A stretch of DNA of 28,758 nt. Source: Myxococcales bacterium (GTDB taxonomy: Bacteria > Myxococcota_A > Polyangia > Haliangiales > Haliangiaceae). Below the pieces are notes generated by a model, which worked only from the letters and a program-made list of their open reading frames with translations, did not search any database and was not told the DNA's origin. Positions within the stretch are counted from its first letter, which is position 1. Each line of letters starts with the position of its first letter. The stretch covers positions 85,650 to 114,407 of the forward strand of contig JADJJK010000031.1 of assembly GCA_016706545.1 (NCBI GenBank), given 5' to 3'. Positions 1 through 15,025 of this stretch are shown in pieces. Made by a program: the position numbers and the translations under genes.

Positions 1-1
1 A

Positions 2-1447
<1,446 letters not shown>

Positions 1448-1477
1448 AGCGCCGCGCCGCGGTGCCTGTTTTCGTCG

Positions 1478-2210
1478 TCGTCTCTCTCTCTTCTCTCTCT
1501 CAGGTATCTGGGTTCTGAACCAGCAGGGGCTGTGGGCGGTGTGGAGAGGCGCGCAGGCACGCCATCGCCCACGCCGCCCATCCACCGCGTGCGCCTCTCC
1601 AAGGGCTGTGCGTCAACCGCGCCACCTCGCGCCTCACGGCTGCCAAAGCTCGATGGGGCGCGGTTGTCCACAGCCCGCCACCGTCCATAGCCCCGCCATC
1701 GCCGCCCATTCCCCCTCTCTCTCCCTCCCTGGTTCTGGTTCTCTCAACAAAAACAATAGATCTGGTTCTGCGAACCAGCAGGGGCTGTGGGCGGTGTGGA
1801 GAGGCGCGCAGGCACGCCAGCTCCACGCGGCCCACCCACCGCGTGCGCCTCTCCAAGGGCTGTGGACAACCGCGCCACCTCGCGCCTCACGGCTGCCAAA
1901 GCTCGATGGGGCGCGGTTGTCCACAGCCCGCCACTGTCCATAGCCCCGCCATCGCCGCCCATTCCCCCTCTCTCTCTCCCTCCCTGGTTCTGGTTCTCTC
2001 AAATAAAACAATAGATCTGGTTCTGCGACCAGTAGGGCTGTGGGCGGTGTGGAGAGGCGCGCAGGCACGCCAGCTCCACGCCGCCCACCACCGCCTGCGC
2101 CTCTCCAAGGGCTGTGCGTCAACCGCGCCACCCACGCACACCGACGAAGCACTCAGCTCACTGGGCGCGGTTGTCCACAGCCCGCCACCGTCCATAGCCC
2201 CGCCATCGCT
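1478..2210. repeat. Three tandem copies of a ~254-255-bp GC-rich structured unit; copy 3 is truncated at the island junction
   Basis: Units begin at about 1508, 1762 and 2017. Each has a CT-rich/A-rich tail, a palindrome CTGGTTCTGCGAACCAG and a conserved core. Copy 2 has a perfect 20-bp inverted repeat (1856-1875 / 1909-1928). Confidence 0.85.
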
Positions 2211-2226
2211 GTTCACTCGCTCTATC

Positions 2227-2243
2227 TGTGAATCGCATTCACA
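2227..2243. promoter_or_regulatory. Perfect palindrome TGTGAATcgcATTCACA at the start of the low-GC leader upstream of the adenylation operon (candidate regulator-binding site)
   Basis: 7-bp arms with a 3-bp spacer read directly. It lies in the AT-richer leader about 355 bp upstream of the first island gene. Confidence 0.3.
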
Positions 2244-2506
2244 TCGCATCTCGTATTGCCAATCGTCTGCAAGATTGTTAATCTGTGCCGGCAATCAAAT
2301 GGCTATCTCTTCACGTCATAGTAAGGCCGCGCAGCTCACGCTCGAGTCCGCGCGCAAGCCCACCGGCCACGGCGGCTGGCGCCCCGGGGCTGTCGCCGCG
2401 TCGCGGTGGTCAGATTGCCTCAGTGGAACCGCTCGCCGCCATGGGGTAGTTCCGGATCTGACCGCCGCCTATGGCCCGGCGCGAGTCAACGAGAACTGCA
2501 AAACCG

Positions 2507-2533
2507 CCAATAGCTGTTCCCAGTTGCTATTGG
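2507..2533. promoter_or_regulatory. Inverted repeat CCAATAGC-N11-GCTATTGG in the 5' leader of the adenylation gene (candidate operator or RNA stem-loop)
   Basis: Perfect 8-bp arms, about 65 bp upstream of the ATG at 2599. Confidence 0.25.
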
Positions 2534-2598
2534 TGGTTCGCTGTGCGAACCTATCATCCGGGTACCGAATGGTCCCACAACTGTAGCGGCCGCCACGA

Positions 2599-4068
2599 AT
2601 GACTGAAGTCGAGATATCGACAATCGCTCTGATGGTTCGCGAGGCGCTCGATGGGCCTGACCGTCTGTTGGTCGAGGACGGATGGGGGCGATGGGGCCTA
2701 AGCACGTCTCAGACCCTTTCGCTTGCGGAGATGCTCATGGAGGTACTCGGGGACCGGGCCAGTCGACCTCTGGTGGCGTACCTGCAAAAGTCTCGACTCT
2801 ATTACGCATTCACCGCTTGCTGCTTCCTTAACCGCTTGAGTTACTGCCCGATCGATGCATCAAACCCGCTACAGAGGGTGCTCGATGTTGCTGCGCAGTT
2901 GCCAGACGCCATAATTGTCTGCGACAATGAGGAGGTCCTTGCTTCGATCTTGGAGCGAAAGATCGATGGCATCCGCATCAGCGAGGACTTTACCCGGGAA
3001 GATCGAGAGAACCGAGACGCGGTTGCAATGCCCGGGACGAAGAGTCCGCACTATTGTATCGCCACATCCGGTAGCACCGGTACACCGAAGTTGGTGCTGG
3101 TTCCGCATGATCACACGATTCCATTTGTGCGCTGGGCAGTACCCTTCTATAGAATCGGTCAAGGTTGCCGTTGGGCGCAATTCTCAAGCATCGGGTTCGA
3201 CCTTTCGCTCGTTGACTTCTTGTCTGTGGTGTGTGGCGGCGGGGTTCTCATTTCGCTTTCCTCTCAGCTCGACCGCATGCGTCCGGCGCTTGCGGTGAAA
3301 CGATGCCGTATTACCCACTGGCACTCCGTGCCGTCGATGATCCCGTACTTTCTCATCGATTCGGTAGGGGACGATCAGTCCACATGTCAGGTGTTCTCGT
3401 TCTGCGGTGAACCGCTTCAGCGAGCAAATGCAGACAAGCTCATGGCTCGATACCCTGGGGCAAGAATCGTAAATACATATGGTCCAACCGAAGGCACGCT
3501 GTTCTGCTCATTCTTCGAATATCGCCCCAATGACGAGACCGTGGTCGGAGACTTCGTCCCCATCGGACAACCGATACCACCGTGGAACTTCATCCTAATT
3601 CCCGAGGAGCGAGCGGAAAGGCTGGTGCTCATTGCCCCGAACATTGCCGACGGTTATGTCGGAACCGAATCCGCCGCGTTCGCCGCCGTCGATCTGTTTG
3701 GGTTCCGGCTACGCGCTTTCGACACGGGGGACAGGGTGAAGAGGCTTGGGCTACATCTCTATTTTTCACATCGAGTGGACACTATGGTGAAGGTGAATGG
3801 AAATCGCTTAGATCTCGCCGAGGTGGAGGCCGTTGCACAGCGCCTTGGTTTCACCAATCCGATGGCATTCGTGGTGGGAAGCGGAGTAACTTTGGTGGCC
3901 GAAGGAGAGCAAGACGCGGTGACGCTCCTGATCCAACAACTCGGTGAGCACCTGCCGCAGTATGGCGTTCCCAATGTTGTGCGAGTTGTTCCCGCGCACC
4001 CGCGCACCCCAAGCGGCAAGCTCGACCGGCGGGCCGTCCGAAAGTCGCTCGGAGAAAACAGTGAATAG
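2599..4068 (+). CDS. Stand-alone adenylation-domain enzyme (AMP-dependent synthetase/ligase; DltA or NRPS A-domain-like)
   Basis: Core motifs A3 TSGSTGTPKLV, A4 FDLS, A5 NTYGPTE, A7 FDTGDRV, A8 VKVNGNRLDLAEVE, A10 PSGKLDRRA. 489 aa. GC about 50%. Confidence 0.9.
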   Translation: MTEVEISTIALMVREALDGPDRLLVEDGWGRWGLSTSQTLSLAEMLMEVLGDRASRPLVAYLQKSRLYYAFTACCFLNRLSYCPIDASNPLQRVLDVAAQLPDAIIVCDNEEVLASILERKIDGIRISEDFTREDRENRDAVAMPGTKSPHYCIATSGSTGTPKLVLVPHDHTIPFVRWAVPFYRIGQGCRWAQFSSIGFDLSLVDFLSVVCGGGVLISLSSQLDRMRPALAVKRCRITHWHSVPSMIPYFLIDSVGDDQSTCQVFSFCGEPLQRANADKLMARYPGARIVNTYGPTEGTLFCSFFEYRPNDETVVGDFVPIGQPIPPWNFILIPEERAERLVLIAPNIADGYVGTESAAFAAVDLFGFRLRAFDTGDRVKRLGLHLYFSHRVDTMVKVNGNRLDLAEVEAVAQRLGFTNPMAFVVGSGVTLVAEGEQDAVTLLIQQLGEHLPQYGVPNVVRVVPAHPRTPSGKLDRRAVRKSLGENSE

Positions 4069-4321
4069 TGGCACATACGAAATCGCCCGCCGGCTAATTG
4101 CATCTGCGCTCGGCGCGCAGTTGGAGGCGATCGGTCCAACAACAGCCATCTATAAGATTCCGGAATGGGACAGCCTTGGTCAATTGAAGATCGTGGTGGC
4201 CTTGGAGAAGGCGCTCAACGTTAGAATTCTGGATGAAGTGACCTTCGAGTCCCTTGTGAATGTACGAAGAATCGCGGCGTATATCAATAATGTCAGAGCG
4301 GAAAATCACAATGGCAAATGA
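4061..4321 (+). CDS. Small acyl/peptidyl carrier protein (DltC-like), GTG start overlapping the adenylation gene stop by 8 nt
   Basis: Phosphopantetheine-attachment motif EWDSLGQLKIV. About 86 aa. GGAG Shine-Dalgarno 6 nt upstream of GTG 4061. The ORF-track entry 3944-4321 is the same frame with a spurious N-extension. Confidence 0.75.
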   Translation: MNSGTYEIARRLIASALGAQLEAIGPTTAIYKIPEWDSLGQLKIVVALEKALNVRILDEVTFESLVNVRRIAAYINNVRAENHNGK

Positions 4322-5090
4322 GGTAAATTTCGAGGCGGCGGACGGACATGTGGTCCGTGGAACCCATACCCAGGCGCATGCGGAGCGGGGGATGGTCCTG
4401 CTCGTCCACGGCATCACCGCCGATCGCCATGAATGGAGTTTCTTCGACTTTCTAGCAGCGGAACTGCTGGGTCAGGGCTTCAGCTCACTCGCCATTGACT
4501 ACCGAGGGCACGGGGCGTCTTCGATCCCTATTTCGGAATTGAGTCTCGCGGGTGTTGTGCTCGATATCGCTGCGAGTTGGGAATACTGCCTCGAGCGCCG
4601 CCAGAATCCGTCGGCAATCAAGGTGATCGTGGGCAACAGCTTCGGTGGTGGTGCCTCACTCTTGTTCAGCTCATGGAGTGGAGAAATCGATCATGTTGTT
4701 GCCACATGCCCTGTTCTCTCATACGTCGACGACCTCGATCGTGTCAACAGAGCATGGCGGAGTGACCTCCCGACTGGTCGAATTCACTACGCGAGCAAGA
4801 GTCTTCCTTCTTCCATTGTTCCGCAAATGTACCTGTTCGATCTGATGCTGGCGCGGACGACGCGCAACGTGAATCTAACCATTTTCCACGGCACATCGGA
4901 CACCGATGTCCCCATTTTGGCGAGCGAGCAATTTATCGAGAGTCGAGGCAGTGGTAACCTCCACCGGCTCCTAGGAATGGACCATTCGTTCTCAGCACCC
5001 GAAGGAACCGAGAATCGCGCCGCGGTATCGCTTGAATTTCGAAGGCGCGCGGCTCGTGAAATTTCCACCTTTGTCGGAAGCCTCGGGTGA
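4311..5090 (+). CDS. Alpha/beta-hydrolase fold protein (thioesterase or acyl-transfer candidate); alternative in-frame starts at 4290 and 4260
   Basis: HG oxyanion motif (LLVHGITADRHEW), nucleophile elbow GNSFGG, and catalytic Asp/His candidates (TSDTDVP, MDHSF). The ATG at 4311 overlaps the carrier-protein stop (TGA 4319-4321). Confidence 0.8.
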   Translation: MANEVNFEAADGHVVRGTHTQAHAERGMVLLVHGITADRHEWSFFDFLAAELLGQGFSSLAIDYRGHGASSIPISELSLAGVVLDIAASWEYCLERRQNPSAIKVIVGNSFGGGASLLFSSWSGEIDHVVATCPVLSYVDDLDRVNRAWRSDLPTGRIHYASKSLPSSIVPQMYLFDLMLARTTRNVNLTIFHGTSDTDVPILASEQFIESRGSGNLHRLLGMDHSFSAPEGTENRAAVSLEFRRRAAREISTFVGSLG

Positions 5091-5695
5091 TGCTCACCAT
5101 TACCGAACCTCTTTTTCTTGCCGAACCTCGTAGTTGGCCCGAGTGGGACATCTCGCTCGGAGCCTTTGTGACTGTTGAAGCGAGTCCTGAAGCTCCCGTG
5201 AGAATCAGTCCCAGGTGCCGTGTAGGGCACCATGTCTACATTGGCTCGGCTGTAACGCTATGTAATGGAGTCCGACTTGACACCATGAGCTTTGTTGGCG
5301 CTCGAACGACAATCGGAGAGGGCTCCGCAGTTCACAGCGTGAAGGTATTCGAAGCAGTGACGATTGGTCGCAACACGTTTATTGGGGGAGATGTGTCTAA
5401 CTGGACCATCATCGGCGATGATGTGACCTTCATGGGGCGAATCGTGCATACCTATCGGAAGGCCGGAGGCAGGGATGACTGGGTGGGCGCAGGACCACAG
5501 CCATCGCCCCGGATTGGGGATAAGGCGATCATCGGTGAGAACGCGCTTCTTATCGGTGGCATTGATATTGGCCGCGGTGCGTACGTGTCGGCCGGGGAGG
5601 TCGTCAAGTACGATGTTCCCGCCGGGCACCTTGCGATCAACGGAGAACTCATTCCTCTCTCTGCCTTCCGCGGGTTCATCAAGAGTCGCGAGTAG
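5087..5695 (+). CDS. Hexapeptide-repeat (left-handed beta-helix) acyltransferase
   Basis: Repeated [LIV]-G-x-x-x-x hexads (VYIGSAVTLCNGVRLD, VFEAVTIGRNTFIGGDV, IGDKAIIGENALLIGGIDIGRGAYVSAG). ATGA start/stop overlap with the upstream gene. Confidence 0.8.
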   Translation: MMLTITEPLFLAEPRSWPEWDISLGAFVTVEASPEAPVRISPRCRVGHHVYIGSAVTLCNGVRLDTMSFVGARTTIGEGSAVHSVKVFEAVTIGRNTFIGGDVSNWTIIGDDVTFMGRIVHTYRKAGGRDDWVGAGPQPSPRIGDKAIIGENALLIGGIDIGRGAYVSAGEVVKYDVPAGHLAINGELIPLSAFRGFIKSRE

Positions 5696-5709
5696 GGCAC
5701 GAGGCCCGT

Positions 5710-6852
5710 ATGAAACTGCGAGTGTTCGTCAGCCATAGTTTTCATGCCGAGCACCACCTGCACGGCAAGCTTGATGGTTTTCGTAACTCTGTGGATGCTG
5801 CTCGGGTTGAGGTGCTGTCGCATGCCAAACTGGGGTTGCGGGATGTCTCAATTGATCTCCACTTTGAGGATACGGCGATTGGACAGTTGCTACCTGCGCG
5901 GACACGAATAGACATCGAATGCGCTGACATCTTCATAATCGATATTTCAGCCCGCACTGCGAACACATTTTTTGAACTCGGGTATGCTCGTGCTTTGGGT
6001 GTGGAAACAATTGTGATTCAACAACGCTCTATCCAAGAATCGATTCCGGCGAACGTGGCCGACCTTCTTGTCGGATTCTATGGGACCACAGATGAGCTAC
6101 GGCAGATTGTCGCGAGGCGACTCAGCGAGATTCTGGGAGATGTGGCGTCCTTGGGCGCGAGCCGACCGCGCGACCGATGTTTCTGGTTCGAACCGGATGT
6201 TAGAGAGGTGCATATCGTGTGTGGCAGCGAGCCTGAGGCGACGCGATTTGCCAACCGGGACTCCGACGACTACTTGCTTATCGACAACTTTGACGACCGC
6301 GATGCTCTCTTTGCGCTGAGCACCTTGCTGTCTCGCGCATACCCGAACGCGAACTTGGTCCGCCACACCTCGGCGAACCTGCCCCCGGACATCTACCACT
6401 CCAATCTGGTTCTTGTTGGTGGCCCTCTTACAAATCGTGTCGCCGCGGAGATGATGGCGGAACTTAACGTGAAAGTTAGATACCTTGATGGCGACGATGG
6501 CATTGAGTTTCAGGGGCCACGTGGGCTTGAGATCGTACGATCCCAGCGGGATGCGTCAGGTGTGATCGTTGCAGACGCAGGGTATTTTGGCCGTTTTCGG
6601 AACCCATTTGCGCGTCGGAACCGCATCATCATGTGCCAGGGATGCCATACATTCGGAACGCTCGCAGCGAGTGCCATCCTTGCGGACGACAATCAGGCGC
6701 AGGACAACGCACGCTACCTTGAGAAGCTTTCCGGTGTAGATGCCCGAGCAATCGCTCGAATAGAGTGCGTATTCTCAGTCCGAGTTCTCACTAACCGACG
6801 GGTACTGCCTGCAGCCGTCACCGAGCCCTTAACATTTGTACATGTTTCTTGA
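5710..6852 (+). CDS. Two-domain protein: N-terminal TIR/NDT-like (flavodoxin-fold) domain plus C-terminal Rossmann-like domain with SLOG/LOG-like glycine motifs
   Basis: N-terminal: VFVSHSF...DLHFEDTAIGQLL...ADIFIIDISARTANTFFELGYARALG, matching the TIR / nucleoside 2-deoxyribosyltransferase-like pattern with a conserved Glu. C-terminal: LVLVGGPLTN...IIMCQGCHTFGTLAASAIL resembles the LOG/SLOG GGxxG...PGGxGTxxE motifs. GAGG Shine-Dalgarno; 14-bp gap after the LbH gene. Domain calls are motif-level only. Confidence 0.65.
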   Translation: MKLRVFVSHSFHAEHHLHGKLDGFRNSVDAARVEVLSHAKLGLRDVSIDLHFEDTAIGQLLPARTRIDIECADIFIIDISARTANTFFELGYARALGVETIVIQQRSIQESIPANVADLLVGFYGTTDELRQIVARRLSEILGDVASLGASRPRDRCFWFEPDVREVHIVCGSEPEATRFANRDSDDYLLIDNFDDRDALFALSTLLSRAYPNANLVRHTSANLPPDIYHSNLVLVGGPLTNRVAAEMMAELNVKVRYLDGDDGIEFQGPRGLEIVRSQRDASGVIVADAGYFGRFRNPFARRNRIIMCQGCHTFGTLAASAILADDNQAQDNARYLEKLSGVDARAIARIECVFSVRVLTNRRVLPAAVTEPLTFVHVS

Positions 6853-7509
6853 CAGCCGATGACGGATTTCTTTTCGGAAGAAGAACGTAAGATATTCGTT
6901 GATGTCTTTCGCCATCGGGATGTAATGCTCAATCGAGCGTTCAGCGTCTGCAAGGAGTCCAATGTTCACGTGGTCAACGATGTATCCGCGAGTGTCAAGT
7001 GCATGTGTGAGGATGGCAATATCGATCGCCCAGTTATTCGGCAAGTCGACTAGTGCGAAATCGCATCGGTTAAACAGGTAGGTGCCGCTTAGAGGGAGAG
7101 GGATGGTGTCCCATTCCGGACGGTACAGCTGAAAGAATGGACGAACGACGAGGTTCGTTACCGGAAATGTGTCGTAGGGAGAGTGGAAGATCCCGCGCTT
7201 GAGTGCATGCTTGGGGCCAGTTCGGAGCAAGTCTACCCACTCAGTTTGCCAGTCCCTGATGTCCGCATCGGTCCGAAGCACCAGGTCCTCTCGAGCAGCG
7301 CTCATGCCGACCTTCATTGCGCAGCCGAGACCAACGTCAAGGCACTGAAGTACACGAGCCCCGGCTTCACTGGCCTGCTCAGCTGTGTGATCATCCGATG
7401 CGTTATCGACAACAATGACCTCGCTGACGAGCTTGCTGTCGAGCAAGCGCCGCACAACACTACCAACAGTCTCCTGCTCATTCCGGGCTGGCACTACAGC
7501 TGAAATCAT
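6829..7509 (-). CDS. Family-2 glycosyltransferase (GT-A fold; dolichyl-phosphate-sugar synthase-like)
   Basis: ISAVVPARNEQETVGSVV...EVIVVDNASDDHT...LRTDADI (DxD). GGAG Shine-Dalgarno before the ATG at 7509. 3' end converges with and overlaps the upstream gene by 24 bp. Confidence 0.85.
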   Translation of the reverse strand: MISAVVPARNEQETVGSVVRRLLDSKLVSEVIVVDNASDDHTAEQASEAGARVLQCLDVGLGCAMKVGMSAAREDLVLRTDADIRDWQTEWVDLLRTGPKHALKRGIFHSPYDTFPVTNLVVRPFFQLYRPEWDTIPLPLSGTYLFNRCDFALVDLPNNWAIDIAILTHALDTRGYIVDHVNIGLLADAERSIEHYIPMAKDINEYLTFFFRKEIRHRLSRNMYKC

Positions 7510-7891
7510 GAAATCTCCAGATACGAGGCGGGCACGTGAGACAGTGCGCAGGGTCTTGCGCTTGGAAGCTCAAGCGACTTCATCATGACAACCGGAATTC
7601 TCTCTAGCCGTAGGCGCCAGCTGTGCAGGCGCAGATCTTGCGGCTTCACTTGAATTTTGGCATGAGTTAGTTGTACTGGCATACGGTAAGCTCAGAAATT
7701 CGCTGTGGGAGAAACGAAAGTAGTGTCATGGAGGTTCCGCTACGAAAATCGACTCGGTCGCAACCGCCAAGCCTGGTTGCAGTTCAGACTGAGAGTGAGG
7801 TTCTTTCCTCCAATAGACTTGGCGAGTTTCGCGCGATCGTCACTGTCAAATCGTGCGGTGTGAGAGTGTTGTGATCGCCATCTTCGGCTCC

Positions 7892-8869
7892 CTAGATTCT
7901 CTTTTGCTCGACCAGCCTGCGGTAGTGCTCGCCCAGCAACGTCAGCTTGCAGGCCTTGCTTTCCATGGCCGCGTGCCACATGTGAGGCGCGTCAACGGGC
8001 ACGACTAGGTTTACTCGGTTGTACTTCTGGAGAATCGCAAAGACATGCGTGTGCTCAGGATTGGGTGGTGGCATCCCTGGCTTGCGCCCTTGCATCTCCG
8101 GCTCATACGTTGGGTCCAGTGAAAACCGATACCCCGGCGCTGGAAAGAACTCAGCAATACGTTGAAGCTCCGCAAGACTGATCGAGGGAATCGCCTTCCT
8201 GAGCGACACAAAGCTCTTAACGTTGGTCTTGAAGATGGGGCGCTGATCCCAAGGCCCAAGTGATTGATCAATGTGCGCGTATACACTTCCCGGCGTGATA
8301 TCTCCGACGAGATTGGCGGCACTTCCGACCAGAGCATCTGCAAATAGCGCTGTAAACACGCCGCTCCCATTGCGTTCGGACGCATATTGCTCTGACGTCG
8401 ACGCCGTAAGAATCGTAGTCCCTTCCTTGAGCTCGGCAGTCGAAACGGCTTGGCCTCCAGGACTTCCGGCAATCCCGGAGTGGCAGCTATCCAGCGCAAT
8501 GACCTTGTTCTTCGAGCGTGAGTTATTGGCCAAGATCAGGATCTCAGAGAGAGAGACGCCTTCATCGCCACGGCGAGAGTCGGAGGCCAGGAGGTAGCCG
8601 CCCGTTGCCTCAATGTGTCCGTGACCCGCAAAGTAGAGGAGAGCAATCTCGTCATCCGTCGAGAAAAGCTCCTCGATCGAGTCTTTCAGCTCCGCACGCG
8701 GAACCTGGTCGTTCGGGCTCGTACCCGTTAGCGGCTTTACGGCGAAGTTAACCGTGCCATCGGCGTTTCGTTCAAGCAGTGGCTTAATCGAGTGTGCGTC
8801 GTTGACACATCCGTGCAGCGGTGATGTGTGCTCGTAATAATCAATCCCGACGACCAGCGCTTTGCGCAT
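7892..8869 (-). CDS. Caspase-like peptidase (C14 / caspase-HetF-type p20 domain) with a ~90-aa C-terminal extension
   Basis: [10 protein letters not shown]...GCVNDA...LLYFAGHGH (catalytic His)...IALDSCHSG (catalytic Cys). Strong GGGAGGG Shine-Dalgarno. Lies 26 bp downstream of the TIR-like gene on the same strand. Confidence 0.85.
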
Positions 8870-8895
8870 TGTCCCTCCCTTGCTTACGTGCGTAT

Positions 8896-9282
8896 CTACA
8901 GCGACTTAATGAATGTTGCGATGTTGTCCCAGGTCCAATTAACGATCTTTATGCCGCTGAGTTCTGCCGGAAGACTAGTGGGGCGATTGTCCGCGGAGCA
9001 GTAGACACCAAGGAGCCTTCGCCCCTCGGCCTTGGCGCATGAGGCTTCCCACAGTGCGCCATCCCCCTTCGTTGTGTTCTTGCTAACGAGTACGATCACG
9101 CCATCGCACCCCTTGATGCGGGAACGACAATTTGTCTTCCACTTCTCGTCCCAGGGCTCCTTCACGGACATGTCCACGAACTCGAACGGCGTGCTTTCAT
9201 TCTTGGATTGTCCCACCAAGAAGTCCCGTGACGTCTTGTCCTCGATGGCGAACGCAATAAAGACCCGCTTCTTCCCGGACAT
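8896..9282 (-). CDS. Small stand-alone TIR-like domain protein (ThsB / DUF1863 / MTH538-type)
   Basis: [16 protein letters not shown]...[36 protein letters not shown] fits the TIR-like architecture (betaA VFISF, S-x-W-x-x-E helix, conserved Glu). 128 aa. AGGGAAG Shine-Dalgarno. Confidence 0.75.
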
Positions 9283-10420
9283 ACTGCTTCCCTTTCTTCG
9301 ATGCGCTAGATGGCGTGCTTCGGAACCGCGTCAACGATACTCTGAGTGTTTCAGGCGACCATTTCGCTGGCGACGTCTTGCACGGCTCGGGAGGCTCGCT
9401 CGTTCCCGCGTGGATGTATCCGGACGATCGGCTTGTCGTACGACATGGCGATCTCGCTCTCTTCCTGCATCCAGCCAGAGTGCGATGCATACACGCCAGA
9501 GAGCATTATTAACACGATGTGGACTGGCCGAGAGTGGCGGTCCAAGCCCGCGCGTAGCTGCGCGCCGGTCCCACCATGAAGTGGTCGTGTTGAGGGACCG
9601 AGAACTGGGCAGCATGCCGACACCGGAACGTCGCCAATGTGTCCTCGAACGGTGTCGTCCGCGGTGTCGAAGTCACCACTCGCAGTGAGGAACTCTGCCG
9701 AACGCACCTCAGGTAGACTCAGAATGTAGAACACTCCCGTAGACTCACTGGCAATCCCTCCGGGAGGGTTAGGTGCTGGGGGATTAAGCACTGGGAGTGT
9801 TCCGGCGAGCTGGCGATTCCAACAGTATCACGGGGGATGGCGCGTAGGGAGGTTGGGAAATTCGCTCGATCGTGATCACCCAAACCAGTCCATCGCGATC
9901 CACCGATGTGGTCCATCGCGATCAGTGGCCCGACCAGTAGGAGAGGAGAGTACTCGATGGCAGGATGATGTCCCTGGACCGCGGAGGGGAAGCCGCGAAA
10001 AGACGGAAGGAATCGAGCGAGAGACGACTGTTGTCCCGATGTTGGATCCCGAAGTCGTGAGGGCGCTTGGGGAGCCCTTTCCTCGGTGTAGGACAAGCTG
10101 TCACCACCGGCCTCCGAGGGTCCCATTTCCACCGCCATCACCGGTGACCTGGGGCCTACCCGATGGGAGCCATCTCGGTGTGGTCGCGAGACGGGGTCAA
10201 GGGTCGCTCCGACGACGAGCGCAGCGAGCTTGCCCTTGAGGCCGGCGCGCGACCGCACCACTCTCGCCGGTGGGGGTGGGCCCCTGGTCCCGGTGGTTCT
10301 GCTACCCTCGATCGTCGGCGGCGACAACAAGCCGCGGCGTAAGTCTGCGTGATCTCGTCGACCTTCAAATCCATACGGATTTGAGCTGCCGTCTACAGTG
10401 ACGACTAACCGTTAGGGGCG

Positions 10421-11875
10421 CTAGCGCGCGCTCATAGGTAGGATCTTAGGACCGGCCTCCGAGGAGGACCGGCCGGGAGATCCCGGGGGGATCGACAAGC
10501 GACAACGACAGCCTTCACCCTGCGGTTACCACACCCAGCACACGGAGACTGCGTTGTCTACCCCGCACCTTACCAGGATGCGGACGGCGCTCGCACGCGC
10601 GCTGTCCGCCGATGATGTCAACCAGCTCGGCCGTGACACCGGCCAGAGCGAGAGGCTGCGAACGGTCACGCCGCACCGCCTGTTCCTCTCGACCGTCGCC
10701 GCGCTCGCCGGTGGGAAGGTCGAGTCCCTCGCGGACCTCCTCCGCGAGTTCAATCATCAGAACCAGGTCACCGTCGCCTACAAGGCGTTCTACAACCGCC
10801 TCGCTCGACCCGGCTTCGCGAGCTTCATGCAGCAGATGTTCGCGCGGCTCGTCGAGAGGGGGGGGGCTGAGCGTCCGGATGCTCGAGCCCGAGGGGCACG
10901 CCGCCGTTGCTCGATTCAAGGACATCGTGATCCAGGACGGCTCTTCGTTCGCGCTCAAGAAGACGCTGCAGCACGTGTTTTCGGGACGGTTCACGAACCG
11001 CGAGCCAGCCGCGGTCGAGGTCCACGCGACCTACAGCGGATTCTCCGACGAGGTGTCCACGGTCTCGATCGCTTCGGACAGCGAGGCTGAGCGCCAGTTC
11101 CTACCCGCGCCGTCGACGCTGGCTGGGCGCCTGCTTCTTGCAGATCGTGGCTATCCCAGCACGCAGTACTTCGACGCGGTTCGCGCCCACGGTGGGAGCT
11201 TCATCGTGCGGCTCAGCCGAAGCCACGACCCGTGGGTGTCGGCCGCGTGGGTGCAGGGCAAGCAGGTGCTGCTGAGAAAGCCGACGCGGCTGTCGCGGTT
11301 CATCGAGCGGAACTCCAATCGCCGGATGGATCTCGACGTCGAGTACGAGAGAGGAAAGGACGTATTGCGCTTCCGCGTCATTGTTCTGCCCGGCCGGGAA
11401 GCGACGATGACCCGGCTCTGCACGAACCTTCCGCGCACACCGTTCTCCCTCGACCTCGTGTCGCGGCTGTACCGCTTCAGGTGGCAGATCGAGCTGCTCT
11501 TCAAGGAATGGAAATCCTACGCGAACCTCCACAAGTTCAACACCGCCAACGAACACATCGCCGCGGGCCTGATCTGGGCCAGCCTCTGCGCCGCCGTGCT
11601 CAAGCGCTTCTTGGCTCACGCCGCTGAGCTCGTCGGCGGCAGGGCAATGTCTACCCGACGCGTGGCGATGTGCGCCGCCCACATCATCGACGAACTGGCG
11701 GCCGCGCTCCTCGCCTGCATCAGCATCGCGGCCGCGTTCAGCGACGGCCTGGCGTTCCTCCTGGCCAACGCCCGCCGCTCGAACCCTGTCCGCGACCGCA
11801 AGACCGGGCGCCTACGGGCCGGCCTGGTCACCGTCGGGGCCCGTTCCTAAGTGATCGCCTATGAGCGCGCGCTAG
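10421..11875 (+). mobile_element. IS4-family insertion sequence (about 1.45 kb) with ~30-bp imperfect terminal inverted repeats
   Basis: Left end CTAGCGCGCGCTCATAGG...CTTAGG (10421-10450). Right end CCTAAG...CCTATGAGCGCGCGCTAG (11846-11875); the 18-bp core is a perfect reverse complement. Encodes a DDE transposase. No clear target-site duplication is visible. Confidence 0.85.
10554..11850 (+). pseudogene. IS4-family DDE transposase split by a +1 frame change in a G9 homopolymer (10858-10866)
   Basis: N-terminal part in frame 0 (10554..~10866). The remainder is in frame +1 (..11850) with LLLADRGYPSTQYF...SFIVRLSRS and RWQIELLFKEWKSYANL (YREK region). Removing one G joins the two into a ~430-aa transposase. 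Confidence 0.8.
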
Positions 11876-12044
11876 CGGCCGCGGCTGCCAGGCCCATTCG
11901 TCGGAGCTGCGCGTCCGTGTGCTGGCCACCGGACTGGCCACGTATCCCGACGTGACCGTGGTCTGCCAGCGCGCAGAGTAGGCGCGCGGTCGCGACAGGC
12001 GGTCGCAACGCTGAGAGTCACCGGGACAGTGATAGCGTGACGCC

Positions 12045-12977
12045 GTGAACGAGGCTGCGTCAAAGCTGGTGTGCGCGGTGTGCGGGCAGCTCGCGCAAGG
12101 CGCGCCGGAGCGCGCGCGGGTGGTGAGCAACGTGCGGCGCCTGGGGGCCGAGGAGTTCGAGGTGTGGCGTTGCTCGGCGTGCCGCTCGATCCACGCGGCG
12201 GGCGCGGTCAGCGACGCGGAGCTGGCGGCGTACTATCAGGACTACCCGTTCGCGCGCGGCAAGCGCTCGCGGGTGACGAGGTACCTGCACGGGCGGCTGT
12301 GGCGTCGCGTGGCGCGCGTGGGGATCTCCGGCCACGCCAAGGTGCTGGACTACGGCTGCGGCGCCGGGCTGCTGGTGGCGGATCTCTGCGAGCGCGGCCT
12401 TGATGCCGCTGGCTACGACGCCTATACGCCGGCCTTCCAGCGTCCAGCGCTCCTGCAGCAGCGCTACGACGTGGTGCTGGCGCAGGACGTGCTGGAGCAC
12501 GTGGAGGATCCGCTGGCGCTGCTCGAGAGGCTCGGCGCGCTGTGTCGGCCAGGTGGGGTGCTGGCGATCGGTACGCCAGACGCCAGCGCCATCGACCTGG
12601 CGCGCCCGTCGCGCTGGAAGCACTCGCTGCATCAGCCGTTTCACCGGCACCTGCTGGCGAGCCCTGCGCTCTTGGCCGCGGGCGCGGCGCGCGGCTGGCA
12701 GCTCCTCCGCTACTACCCGCGTTCGTACGCCAACACGCCGGTGCCCACACTGAACTTGCCGTACCTGCTGCGCTACCTGCGCGCGGTGGACGACACCATC
12801 GACGTCGCGTTCGACCCGCCCGCGGTGCGGCTCGCGATGTTCTCGCCAGCGGCGCTGTGGGACGCGCTGTTTGGCGCGCTGCGCTGTCCGGCGAGCGATG
12901 GGCTGGCGGTCTTTCGCGTGCCGGAGGCAGCTTTGCCGAAGCCGCCAGCACCGCCACCGGTCAGTGCAGGCGGGTGA
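12045..12977 (+). CDS. Class I SAM-dependent methyltransferase with N-terminal Cys4 zinc-ribbon
   Basis: CxxC...CxxC pairs at the N-terminus. Motif I VLDYGCGAG. Acidic motif II DVVLAQDVLEHV. GTG start. Confidence 0.8.
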   Translation: MNEAASKLVCAVCGQLAQGAPERARVVSNVRRLGAEEFEVWRCSACRSIHAAGAVSDAELAAYYQDYPFARGKRSRVTRYLHGRLWRRVARVGISGHAKVLDYGCGAGLLVADLCERGLDAAGYDAYTPAFQRPALLQQRYDVVLAQDVLEHVEDPLALLERLGALCRPGGVLAIGTPDASAIDLARPSRWKHSLHQPFHRHLLASPALLAAGAARGWQLLRYYPRSYANTPVPTLNLPYLLRYLRAVDDTIDVAFDPPAVRLAMFSPAALWDALFGALRCPASDGLAVFRVPEAALPKPPAPPPVSAGG

Positions 12978-13641
12978 TGGTGCCCTTGGAGATCGCGCCG
13001 CCTTCTCCGTAGCTCTCGCCTCCGCTGGTGATCGCCGCGATGGTCCCACCTTCGAAGCAGGTGGTGCTGGTGCCAGCGACGCTGGCCTCGACATCCACCG
13101 AGACGGTACACCAGCGATCGTCGCGACGGGTCTGGTACGCATACGAGGCCGGGGCAGACTTGAGCGGAGGCTCGTGGCCCACGCGGGGGTGGGACGGCAT
13201 GATCGCCGGTCCGCGGGTGAGCTTGCGGATCGCGGCCAAGGTCAAGATGGGCTCGTGGGAATGCCAGAGCCCGCGCGCGGTGGCGACCCAGTCGCCCTGC
13301 AGCTCGTGCAGCGCGCGGAGCGTGCTGCTGGCGCCGGGCGGGAGCTCGCAGGTGATAGACGCAACAGTGGCGGCACCGAGCCGGCGCACTTGCTCGACCC
13401 GGCAGTTCGCCGTGCCGTGCTCCTGCACGTCCGGGCTCGGCTTGTCGTGGACGCCCCAGGTGAGCTCTCGCTCGATCTCGTACCTCCAGGTGGCAGCGGC
13501 CTCTAGCATGCCGGCGTAGGGCGGGGAGTCGGGCGCCGCGCTCGCGGGCGCGGCTGCCCACGTGGCGCAGGCGGCGATCAGCGCCAGGGCCGTCAGGCGC
13601 GGAGCGGCAGGGTGGGGCGCGGTCGATGTGGTGGGCGTCAC
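12961..13641 (-). CDS. Hypothetical secreted protein (signal peptide); proposed GTG start at 13641, the track ORF extends to 13758
   Basis: N-region and hydrophobic core ...PRLTALALIAACATWAAAPASA followed by a non-repetitive mature region (RYEIERELTWGVHDKPSPDVQEHG...). The upstream extension runs into AT-richer intergenic sequence. Confidence 0.5.
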   Translation of the reverse strand: MTPTTSTAPHPAAPRLTALALIAACATWAAAPASAAPDSPPYAGMLEAAATWRYEIERELTWGVHDKPSPDVQEHGTANCRVEQVRRLGAATVASITCELPPGASSTLRALHELQGDWVATARGLWHSHEPILTLAAIRKLTRGPAIMPSHPRVGHEPPLKSAPASYAYQTRRDDRWCTVSVDVEASVAGTSTTCFEGGTIAAITSGGESYGEGGAISKGTITRLH

Positions 13642-13744
13642 GTGGTGAGTCCTTCGTGGTTCACGTTCGTTCCAAGGCCCAACGCGGAGGACTGGGCTAA
13701 GATCTTGCCTGCCACCGGCAACCCCACAACTGGACACGAGGCAG

Positions 13745-15025
13745 ATGATCAAGATCACGCTTCAGAGGTCGTTTGTCGCAGGCCGCGCGAGCCGCGCGCT
13801 GCAGGCGATGATCGTGATGGCCGCGACGGCCGCGACGGCCGCGAGTGGCTGCGGCCCCAGGGTGTCGCCTGCGCAGGTGCCAGCCGAGCCGCCGCCGCAG
13901 GTCGCGCCGGACTCACCGGCGCCGCCGGCGGCCAGCGCGCGCGCGTCCGCGAAGGTGCCCACCTCGCCGCGGGGCGTTGACGCGGCCGACCGTGAGCCCG
14001 CAGGGCCCGAGGAAGGAGGCGTCGCGGGACCGGACGCGACCGAGGCGCCCGCTGCGCAGGGCGAGCCAGCGAGCGCAAGGGCACCGGCGCTGGTGGCGCT
14101 GGCGGCGGCGCTCACCGAGGCGAAGGTCAGTGTGCTGGAGATGTCGCCGCTAGAGCACGAGTGCGCCAACCTGCCAGCGCGGGCGACCCTGATCTCGATG
14201 AACCTGCCCGGATCGGCGCAGGACTGCGCGGTCGGGCAGGGCAGGAGCGTGTGTGTGCCCGCTGTCCGCAGGCCGGACAAGCTGCGCCAGACGCTGTGCG
14301 GGGCCGGCATGTCGGCGAAGCCAGCGGGCTGGCCGCCGGCGCTCGAGCGGGCGCTGGATCCGCTGGTCCGCATGGGTTGGCGGGTTCGCCCGATGGACGG
14401 GCGCGGAGCGCCGCCCGCGCTGGCTGCGTATGATCCCATGGGCGCGGTGAGCCTGCTGGTGAGCGACGGCGTCTCCTGGCAGGTGATGAGCGAAGCGCTG
14501 CCCTCGACGGAGGAGCAGGGCCCGCACGCTGGGCCACGGGCGGTGATGCGCGCTGCCGGGCTGGGCCACGGCGCGAAGTACGCGGTGGTGATCGACGAGT
14601 ACGAGGGCGGCAGCGAGAGCGGGTGGCAGACCACCTGGCTGTTCATCTTGTGCGGCGAGGGGCTGGAGTTGACCGTGTGTACGCGCAAGGCCATTGGCGC
14701 GCTGGTGTGGAGCCTTGGGCCCGGCGAGCGAGCGGCGTACCGGCGCGGCGGCGCGAGCCTGACCCGGCGTCCGCACCTGGCGGTGTCGTTGGCGCCGAGC
14801 CTGGCCGCGAACGCGACGACCTTGCGGCTCAAGCTGACCCGGCGGACCTTGCCGGCGAAGCTGCGCGATCGCTTCCAGCTCACCCCACCGGAGTGTGAGC
14901 CCTCCGGCGATCCGCTGGAGCCCGGGAGCTGCGATCCGTGGTCGGCCATGGACGCGCTGCGCGCCGACGCCGGGGATTGGCGCTTCGACGGGCAGGCCCT
15001 CGTGCGCGCTGGCAGCGAGCGGTGA
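13745..15025 (+). CDS. Hypothetical lipoprotein (Pro/Ala-rich linker plus Cys-containing globular C-terminal domain)
   Basis: Signal peptide with lipobox (MAATAATAASGC). GAGG Shine-Dalgarno 3 nt before the ATG. The competing 433-aa minus-strand ORF is Ala/Ser/Arg low-complexity and looks like an artefact. Confidence 0.55.
   Translation: MIKITLQRSFVAGRASRALQAMIVMAATAATAASGCGPRVSPAQVPAEPPPQVAPDSPAPPAASARASAKVPTSPRGVDAADREPAGPEEGGVAGPDATEAPAAQGEPASARAPALVALAAALTEAKVSVLEMSPLEHECANLPARATLISMNLPGSAQDCAVGQGRSVCVPAVRRPDKLRQTLCGAGMSAKPAGWPPALERALDPLVRMGWRVRPMDGRGAPPALAAYDPMGAVSLLVSDGVSWQVMSEALPSTEEQGPHAGPRAVMRAAGLGHGAKYAVVIDEYEGGSESGWQTTWLFILCGEGLELTVCTRKAIGALVWSLGPGERAAYRRGGASLTRRPHLAVSLAPSLAANATTLRLKLTRRTLPAKLRDRFQLTPPECEPSGDPLEPGSCDPWSAMDALRADAGDWRFDGQALVRAGSER

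Follow-up and report, generated by a model that had tools for sequence, protein, structure and literature searches.

A TIR/deoxyribohydrolase-like protein with an unnamed Rossmann-like domain lies in a conserved, mobile NRPS-like enzyme cassette and is a candidate sensor-effector

The locus described here lies on a 28,758-nucleotide stretch of contig JADJJK010000031.1 from a Myxococcales bacterium, and this whole stretch is referred to below as the window. Between about 2.3 and 9.8 kb, the window contains an island of 55% GC within a genome of 72% GC. The island holds a cassette of six tightly packed genes (~5 kb in total) together with a caspase gene and two ThsB-like TIR genes. The fifth cassette gene, which we term NX, is the main subject of this study. 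It encodes an N-terminal domain (N domain) that resembles both TIR domains and nucleoside 2-deoxyribosyltransferases (NDT), followed by an unnamed C-terminal domain that we call X. The cassette genes and the two NX domains are given below by window position, strand and predicted product.

2599..4068, + strand: gene 1, stand-alone nonribosomal peptide synthetase (NRPS)-type amino-acid adenylation enzyme, DltA/LgrA-like (Pfam AMP-binding, 4e-29)
4061..4321, + strand: gene 2, carrier protein of 86 amino acids (aa) with a DSL phosphopantetheine site (PP-binding, 2e-5)
4311..5090, + strand: gene 3, alpha/beta-hydrolase with a GNSFGG nucleophile elbow (Hydrolase_4, Abhydrolase_1 and Abhydrolase_6, ~1e-12)
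5087..5695, + strand: gene 4, left-handed beta-helix (LbH, hexapeptide) acyltransferase (Hexapep, 4e-12)
5710..6852, + strand: gene 5, NX, 380 aa from an ATG start, TIR/NDT-like N domain plus X domain
5710..6153, + strand: N domain of NX (aa 1-148), flavodoxin-fold TIR/deoxyribohydrolase with a predicted catalytic Glu, E89 (codon 5974-5976)
6172..6849, + strand: X domain of NX (aa 155-380), Rossmann-like with an inserted beta-meander
6829..7509, - strand: gene 6, GT-A glycosyltransferase of the glucosyl/mannosyl-3-phosphoglycerate synthase type with a DAD motif (Glycos_transf_2, 1e-12)

NX is a real and conserved gene, not a chance open reading frame (ORF). A GAGG sequence is located 5 nt ahead of its ATG, its product has a 100% identical counterpart among the hypothetical proteins of a Myxococcales metagenome-assembled genome, and there are 22 full-length homologues of 31-63% identity, none of which carries a precomputed Pfam domain. 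Among 1.84 billion cluster representatives, a profile of the full two-domain protein matched 109 at E<=1e-30 and 659 at E<=1e-10, the latter being a count for the full NX profile in which X was not isolated. AlphaFold modeled the whole protein with a predicted local distance difference test score (pLDDT) of 84 and a predicted template modeling score (pTM) of 0.73. Comparison of the full protein with PDB sequences yielded chance matches only (asparaginase, ribosomal L7a), tblastn against plasmid and phage collections yielded no match, and the IMG/VR viral contigs scanned contained short N-domain-like matches but no full-length NX.

The N domain adopts a flavodoxin-like fold in the model, in agreement with TIR and NDT structures. 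As a preliminary description of the gene had proposed, VFVSHS forms the first strand (residues 2-8), while ADIFIIDIS...NTFFELGYARALG comprises a strand (74-78) and a helix (84-95, NTFFELGYARAL) bearing a conserved glutamate, E89. A D-x-x-x-x-G loop had been described as well; the loop exists and its glycine, G58, is invariant, although the actual spacing is D54-x-x-x-G58. E89 is invariant within a 23-member subfamily and is present in 81% of 111 members and in at least 90% of 85 diverse members. Among these 85 diverse members of the NX family, Pfam matches were obtained to CAP12-PCTIR_TIR (40), Nuc_deoxyrib_tr (28), TIR_2 (7), and TIR (2). The best E values, 6.6e-8 for Nuc_deoxyrib_tr and 1.8e-6 for CAP12-PCTIR_TIR, come from relatives of the target, whose own matches are weak (Nuc_deoxyrib_tr, E 0.046 and 14.3 bits with a cut-off of 28.8; YtoQ, E 0.06 and 13.8 bits; a PADLOC TIR effector model, E 0.002). 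When a 111-sequence N-domain profile was compared by local hhalign with the ThsB-like TIR encoded at 8896-9282, the two aligned with 91% probability (E 1e-6), and E89 fell upon the TIR glutamate. Because of the Pfam matches across the family and this alignment, the N domain is assigned on sequence grounds to the TIR/deoxyribohydrolase clade, with its TIR and NDT branches not being distinguishable, and the TIR/NDT-like character given to it in the preliminary description is upheld. According to the authors who defined this clade, every characterized active member cleaves or transfers nucleotide N-glycosidic bonds.

A separate model of residues 150-380 is of high confidence (pLDDT 90, pTM 0.87) and exhibits a beta-alpha-beta Rossmann-like core with an inserted beta-meander, as would be expected from the Rossmann-type domain predicted earlier. 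Four C-terminal strands had been named, three of which are modeled as such (VHIVCG 166-171, LVLVG 232-236, and RIIMCQG 305-311), whereas YLLIDNF (188-194) is a loop of low confidence; pLDDT is below 50 at residues 175-194. Across 153 X domains, D196, D198, G237, G238, P239, N242, D289, G311, T314, G316, and N333 are 94-100% conserved. The conserved positions, with their near-invariant polar residues, look like a ligand or active-site pocket. Fold searches were made with PDB structures, and among 350,542 PDB chains Foldseek found the nearest neighbors of the X model to be BcsB (E 5e-4) and a Methanococcus S-layer anchor domain (9FSA, probability 1.0). At the sequence level, a single signal recurs within X: Pfam S_layer_C matches below threshold at the LVxxGGPxxN strand-loop (target C domain, E 5e-4; 7 of 85 members, best 4.6e-6), in agreement with the fold match to 9FSA. 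No Pfam or NCBIfam model and no solved structure covers X, and a profile of 50 X proteins produced chance matches only among PDB sequences. A derivation of X from a duplicated N domain was considered and rejected (hhalign 0.5%).

The preliminary description had likened this C-terminal domain to the SLOG/LOG family, an assignment which is refuted by the outcome that the description itself had named as fatal to it, namely top hits to unrelated folds, here BcsB and the S-layer anchor. No SLOG structure, whether LOG, DprA, YpsA, ThsA, or TRPM MHR1/2, is found among the fold neighbors. Even at E<=10, scans of the target, of its isolated C domain, and of seven diverse X proteins gave no match to a SLOG-family Pfam model; batch scans of 50 members (E<=0.001) and 85 members (E<=0.01) gave none either, and the NCBIfam scan returned no SLOG family. 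The TPALS Pfam family was not matched by any of eight diverse X proteins. Similarly, the 153-sequence X profile aligned with E. coli PpnN, a LOG-family nucleosidase, at a probability of just 0.1% by hhalign, a comparison of limited sensitivity as it used a single LOG sequence, but for which the 91% alignment of the N domain with the ThsB-like TIR served as a positive control. The PADLOC Cap17-type model PDLC00759 does align with one X-PNP protein (P0120), yet only at profile positions 243-499, which correspond to the PNP half and not the TPALS half. What X does share with SLOG domains is generic: a three-layer Rossmannoid alpha/beta sandwich with GGP..N and G.HT.G loops following strands, which is not SLOG-specific. 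X is a distinct Rossmann-like family, not SLOG.

X was confirmed in 168 collected proteins. In 110 of these it follows an N domain, as in NX, while others have an extra C-terminal extension (23), begin with X (25), or carry a long (3) or a short and possibly truncated (7) N-terminal region. The layout itself, which had been thought novel-looking, is accordingly a common one, and a TIR-SLOG layout would not have been new in any case; it is the X family that is undescribed in Pfam (2025 copy), NCBIfam 20, PADLOC 2.0, PDB sequences, and the searchable literature. Its fusion partners comprise CHAT protease, TIR_2, CAP12-type TIR, ThsB-type TIR, PNP_UDP_1, EAD5, Mrr_N, HTH_3, and the HamA domain DUF1837. 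The PNP domain fused to X is closest to the "PN-superfamily" effector of CBASS (1.5e-16) and to PDC-M60C. By analogy, the partners of X correspond to the effectors used by CBASS, Pycsar, Thoeris, and type III CRISPR systems, and the earlier suggestion of a sensor-effector fusion is plausible and fits with such promiscuous fusions. The earlier interpretation as a whole is partly supported and its underlying observation partly confirmed.

The conserved cassette around NX is more informative than the architecture of the fusion. The adenylation enzyme has DltA and the adenylation domain of gramicidin synthetase (LgrA) as its closest relatives (NCBIfam TIGR01733, 1e-59, and DltA, 5e-46; PDB LgrA, 5e-45, and DltA, 5e-37), and it retains both the aspartate of the FD(L)S motif and the lysine of a C-terminal PSGK. 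The carrier gene starts with GTG at 4061, with GGAG located 6 nt upstream. For the hydrolase, the longest ORF begins at 4260, but an ATG at 4311 yields 259 aa in agreement with the orthologues (258-262 aa); cinnamoyl esterase and monoacylglycerol lipase are its PDB matches. The LbH acyltransferase further matches LpxD, NeuD, and GlmU-type families as well as SAT, WlbB, and GlmU in the PDB. The glycosyltransferase matches GpgS (NF010496, 4e-29; PDB, 2e-14) and MpgS (PDB, 1e-11), and its gene is convergent with NX, overlapping the NX 3' end by 24 nt. An ORF at 1843-2586 was rejected as an additional cassette gene: most of it falls within a tandem repeat, no family matches it, and it is unlikely to be a true gene.

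The same gene set surrounds every NX orthologue examined, down to 29% identity, with the adenylation enzyme co-located with NX in each orthologous locus. These orthologues derive from Kordiimonas, Pelagimonas, Caulobacteraceae, Rhodobacteraceae, Solirubrobacterales, Micromonospora, and soil and other metagenomes, such that the cassette is spread among Myxococcota, Alphaproteobacteria, Actinobacteria, and unclassified metagenome contigs, in several gene orders. One shuffled cassette (hydrolase, LbH, NX, adenylation enzyme, carrier), for example, is found in a defense island with HsdM, WYL, patatin plus TIR, and a giant helicase. The LbH gene is directly upstream of the X-domain gene in all cassette variants, and an X-coiled-coil protein likewise follows an LbH homologue (32% identity, E 2e-21); a metagenome scan seeded with the X-first subfamily returned one locus. 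In two genomes (L010 and L011) the carrier and hydrolase are fused, which implies that the hydrolase acts upon a carrier-bound group. The glycosyltransferase is exchangeable: a GpgS-like member of family GT2 is present in the window, L001, L003, and L007, and a different GT2 in L012, whereas GT4 takes its place in L005, L008, L013, and the P0020 locus, with L096 encoding GT4 as well. In Micromonospora (L010 6252-7433), a mannosylglycerate synthase (MGS_GT 2e-100 plus MGS_C) is encoded 1.5 kb downstream of NX. Its occurrence at the usual position of the GpgS-like GT2 or GT4 points tentatively to a small molecule of the glycerate type as glycosyl acceptor.

Two cassette variants lack the TIR/NDT domain altogether or replace it. 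The cassette of the X-PNP protein P0120 (L096) reads GT4, adenylation enzyme, carrier, hydrolase, LbH, X-PNP. A sister cassette, here called variant 2 (the P0110 group; L090-L092 and L094), encodes X followed by a helical tail of ~100 aa with no TIR/NDT domain, in the order TANGO2, adenylation enzyme, carrier, GT2, hydrolase, LbH, X-tail, and a small protein with 3-4 transmembrane (TM) segments. Its enzymes are homologous to those of the window (adenylation enzyme 1e-51, LbH 4e-29, hydrolase 2e-19). The TANGO2-family protein (PF05742) is the constant first gene of these four variant-2 cassettes and is absent from the window variant, and the terminal 3-4 TM protein has 125-132 aa (L090 8029-8412, L091 7995-8375, L092 8143-8541, L094 9028-9405). 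Genes for the Pfam "octameric membrane protein" 8xMP adjoin the cassette in three unrelated loci (L001 11888-12325(-), L007 6377-6871(-), L011 11190-11714(-)); the window contains neither an 8xMP gene nor the variant-2 membrane protein. The possibility that the variant-2 membrane proteins and helical tails are hidden TIR/NDT or 8xMP relatives was rejected (hhalign <=0.8%). Among these cassettes, the enzymes and X are constant, whereas the effector-like part is swapped (TIR/NDT, PNP, or helical tail plus membrane protein). Like X, the cassette is undescribed in Pfam (2025 copy), NCBIfam 20, PADLOC 2.0, PDB sequences, and the searchable literature, which for neither of them is proof of novelty.

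The cassette is horizontally mobile, being found on integrative and conjugative elements and beside defense genes. In other loci its neighbors are serine and tyrosine recombinases with an excisionase-like HTH protein and a Dam methylase; an integrase with ThsB-TIR, caspase, and TPR genes; a PIN/Phd pair; a type IV secretion system coupling protein with Gabija-like OLD-TOPRIM and UvrD genes; an integrase with ParA; a relaxase; TraG, TrwC, and ArdC; or a Gp49/HTH toxin-antitoxin pair with a transposase. In the window, a DDE transposase (PF01609, 5e-21) follows the island at 10612-11850. The remaining island genes encode the caspase and TIR proteins.

7892-8869, - strand: caspase, EACC1-associated type (NF047832 5e-25; PADLOC caspase 6e-19)
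8896-9282, - strand: ThsB-like TIR gene (PADLOC and Pfam)
9351-9791, - strand: ThsB-like TIR gene (Pfam only)

In two loci of Solirubrobacterales type (L005/L009 and the P0020 locus), the same TIR plus caspase module adjoins the cassette in differing relative positions, and the caspases (442 bits) are more alike than the cassette proteins. The module is either a separate mobile defense module traveling with the cassette or an optional partner. Upstream of the first cassette gene, a 253-bp tandem repeat at 1517-2209 (2.7 copies, 91% matches) contains internal inverted repeats (GGGCTGTGGACAACCGCGCC) and possibly represents the edge of the island or a site of regulation or insertion. On its other side, in the high-GC flank, 65-1447 encodes an FHA-domain sigma-54-dependent activator (Sigma54_activat 9e-64, HTH_8) that presumably belongs to the core genome and is unrelated to the island. 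A tRNA search of the window came back empty, and window positions 1-12000 matched no Rfam family. In a soil metagenome locus (L003), the cassette abuts a nucleotide-metabolism set at 8850-13901(-) consisting of a NUDIX protein, an HpaB-like monooxygenase, a cytidylate-kinase-like protein, a fusion of TIR_2 with PRK (uridine kinase-like), and a phosphoribosyltransferase, which is followed by a giant TIR-WD40 protein.

Based upon these features, our preferred reading, which comes near to an even chance without quite reaching it, is that NX serves as the sensor-effector subunit of a mobile conflict system not yet described, most likely an anti-phage system of the abortive-infection type. The adenylation enzyme would activate an alpha-amino acid and load it onto the carrier, from which the hydrolase and LbH enzyme would transfer or acylate the amino acid onto a glycoside. 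This glycoside would be supplied by the glycosyltransferase, a retaining enzyme that uses small acceptors (GpgS/MpgS-like in the window; GT4 or mannosylglycerate synthase in other loci), and the product of the cassette might thus be an aminoacylated or acylated glycoside-type small molecule. X would bind this product, or sense its loss, and thereby gate the N domain, which could then cleave NAD+ or another nucleotide at its N-glycosidic bond and arrest the cell. Such a reading is favored by three observations: 1) the partners of X match the known effector set, 2) some cassettes have no N-glycosidase at all, and 3) solitary NX genes exist apart from the enzymes. These solitary genes are distant NX genes of Acidobacteriaceae and Flagellimonas, which sit among housekeeping genes with no cassette, implying that X plus TIR can act without the cassette enzymes; regulation by X fits this better than a core part in biosynthesis. 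It is a further step, and a rather doubtful one, to propose that the whole cassette represents a new class of immune system in which an NRPS-like aminoacyl/glycosyl pathway replaces the nucleotide cyclase, X reads the resulting ligand, and effectors are interchangeable. In such a system, the ligand might be a messenger induced by infection, or a "metabolite antitoxin" that keeps the effector silent until it disappears.

Several points weigh against the proposal of a conflict system. A multi-enzyme pathway is unusual as a signal generator. The four cassette enzymes scanned against PADLOC (2023), namely the adenylation enzyme, hydrolase, LbH acyltransferase, and glycosyltransferase, have no model there, and NX itself matches just a TIR model weakly. 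In confirmed cassettes the partners are TIR, PNP, and the small membrane protein, while CHAT and nuclease-like domains such as HamA are known as fusions to X outside this confirmed set. One variant-2 locus (L092) is found inside an NDP-sugar/polysaccharide gene cluster. Furthermore, the closest structural and sequence relative of X, 9FSA, is a dimerization domain, and X could therefore be an oligomerization or scaffold module instead of a ligand sensor. Lastly, TIR/NDT and PNP domains both cleave N-glycosidic bonds, and their exchange could reflect shared biosynthetic chemistry and not interchangeable toxicity.

This last point, together with the remaining cassette genes being classic small-molecule tailoring enzymes, keeps alive the strongest of the rival explanations, which we nonetheless consider unlikely. 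In this scenario, the cassette is a miniature biosynthetic cluster, in which a MilB/BlsM-like N domain would hydrolyze a nucleotide to provide a base or a sugar-phosphate, which the other enzymes would then glycosylate and aminoacylate or acylate. X would serve as a substrate-binding or catalytic domain, and the product would be an antibiotic, a toxin, or a protective metabolite carried on mobile elements. The match of 28 of 85 members to Nuc_deoxyrib_tr would be in accord with such a pathway, as would the glycosyltransferases of small-acceptor types (GpgS/MpgS-like and mannosylglycerate synthase) and the invariant polar residues of X, which are compatible with catalysis. However, variant-2 cassettes keep the enzymes and X while encoding a small membrane protein in place of an N-glycosidase, and X is also fused to CHAT protease, HamA-like, Mrr_N, and EAD5 domains, which are not biosynthetic. 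Solitary NX genes occur without a cassette, no consistent transporter or resistance gene accompanies the cassettes, and 40 of the 85 N domains resemble the effector TIRs of Cap12 and Pycsar.

It is improbable that the cassette modifies the cell envelope or its glycans, for instance in superinfection exclusion, with a surface polymer or its precursor being aminoacylated and glycosylated and X binding the glycan. The adenylation enzyme and carrier are indeed DltA/DltC-like, the LbH protein resembles sugar N-acyltransferases, a glycosyltransferase is encoded in nearly all loci examined, and the nearest neighbors of X are proteins of carbohydrate systems, in addition to the polysaccharide surroundings of L092 and the small membrane proteins (8xMP, 3-4 TM) beside some cassettes. 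Despite this, no MBOAT, flippase, or polymerase is present, fusions to TIR/NDT, PNP, and CHAT would make no sense for envelope chemistry, and most loci are in defense islands or mobile elements, not glycan clusters. Nor was a signal peptide noted, and a hydropathy scan of nearby window ORFs, which did not include the cassette proteins, revealed no TM segments. Quite improbable, too, is a role as anti-defense cargo of conjugative or integrative elements, in which the N-glycosidase (TIR/NDT or PNP) would break down the nucleotide signals of host immunity and the other enzymes would modify those signals. The cassette does occur beside relaxase, coupling-protein, and ArdC genes of conjugative elements, but defense genes adjoin it equally often, searches of the phage and plasmid collections and viral contigs turned up no cassette, and the known anti-signal enzymes are small single proteins. 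Least probable by our estimate, and very much so, is the ThsA-like fusion of the preliminary description, in which an isomer of cyclic ADP-ribose or another nucleotide signal would be recognized by a SLOG domain: the Rossmann-like X has GGP..N and G.HT.GT loops superficially recalling the GGGxG and PGGxGT motifs of LOG, it shares a preference for TIR and PNP partners with the TPALS SLOG family, and two ThsB-like TIR genes are located 2-3 kb away, yet there is neither a SLOG hidden Markov model match nor a PADLOC ThsA match, PpnN aligns at 0.1%, the Cap17 model meets X-PNP in its PNP half only, and ThsB and caspase neighbors are absent from most loci.

Returning to the proposed conflict system, NX may work in the manner of the sensor-effector fusions Cap12, PycTIR, and the Cap17 type. 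Like Cap12 (TIR-STING), PycTIR, and other CBASS and Pycsar fusions, NX joins an N-glycosidase-type TIR to a separate, putatively ligand-sensing domain, a likeness also apparent from the 40 of 85 NX-family members matching CAP12-PCTIR_TIR. The partner domain of NX, however, is not STING, SAVED, or a cNMP-binding domain, and NX is accompanied by an NRPS-like adenylation enzyme and carrier, a hydrolase, an LbH acyltransferase, and a glycosyltransferase, with no CD-NTase or pyrimidine cyclase found among the island genes or in ~15 related loci. Similarly, Cap17-type and TPALS SLOG proteins resemble X in having a Rossmannoid sensor-like domain fused alternately to TIR or PNP, but X shows no detectable relation to TPALS or SLOG by hidden Markov model, profile-profile, or fold comparison and resides in an enzyme cassette as opposed to a CBASS operon. 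Thoeris is alike in its general principle, an effector and a sensor of small molecules in one protein (SIR2-SLOG ThsA), and ThsB-like TIR genes lie near the cassette in three loci, whereas most cassettes are without them; NX has no SIR2, Macro, or SLOG domain, and neither the target nor six other island proteins scanned matched ThsA in PADLOC. The MilB/BlsM CMP hydrolases and nucleoside 2-deoxyribosyltransferases share with the N domain the D...N..(F/Y)ELG motif and the Glu nucleophile. Unlike them, NX carries an extra domain of 230 aa, and the target falls below the Nuc_deoxyrib_tr cut-off. The cassette does encode the three kinds of enzyme expected of a peptidyl-nucleoside pathway (an NDT-like nucleotide hydrolase, a glycosyltransferase, and amino-acid ligation enzymes), but sister cassettes are devoid of an N-glycosidase, and other blasticidin- or mildiomycin-type genes are lacking. 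As for the weak S_layer_C likeness of X, 9FSA (an S-layer dimerizing anchor of Methanococcus voltae) and the flavodoxin-like domain of BcsB are extracellular or periplasmic structural or dimerizing domains, whereas X is cytoplasmic, has near-invariant polar residues, and is joined to conflict-type effector partners. NX is not a SLOG/TPALS, Thoeris, CBASS, or Pycsar protein, as the defining features of these systems were sought in it and not found.

If NX and its cassette do form a conflict system, a widespread and so far unnamed sensor-like domain would join the grammar of prokaryotic immunity, and TIR, PNP, and membrane effectors would be tied to a non-nucleotide, carrier-protein-dependent small-molecule pathway, a link that we did not find in PADLOC 2.0 or the searchable literature. 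The cassette is compact, its predicted catalytic residues can be mutated (E89, the serine of the carrier DSL, and the serine of the hydrolase GNSFG), and nature has already swapped its effectors, all of which makes the question directly testable. Should the biosynthetic explanation instead be the true one, the cassette would still be a new mini-pathway of scattered phylogenetic distribution, leading to an aminoacylated glycoside or nucleoside metabolite.

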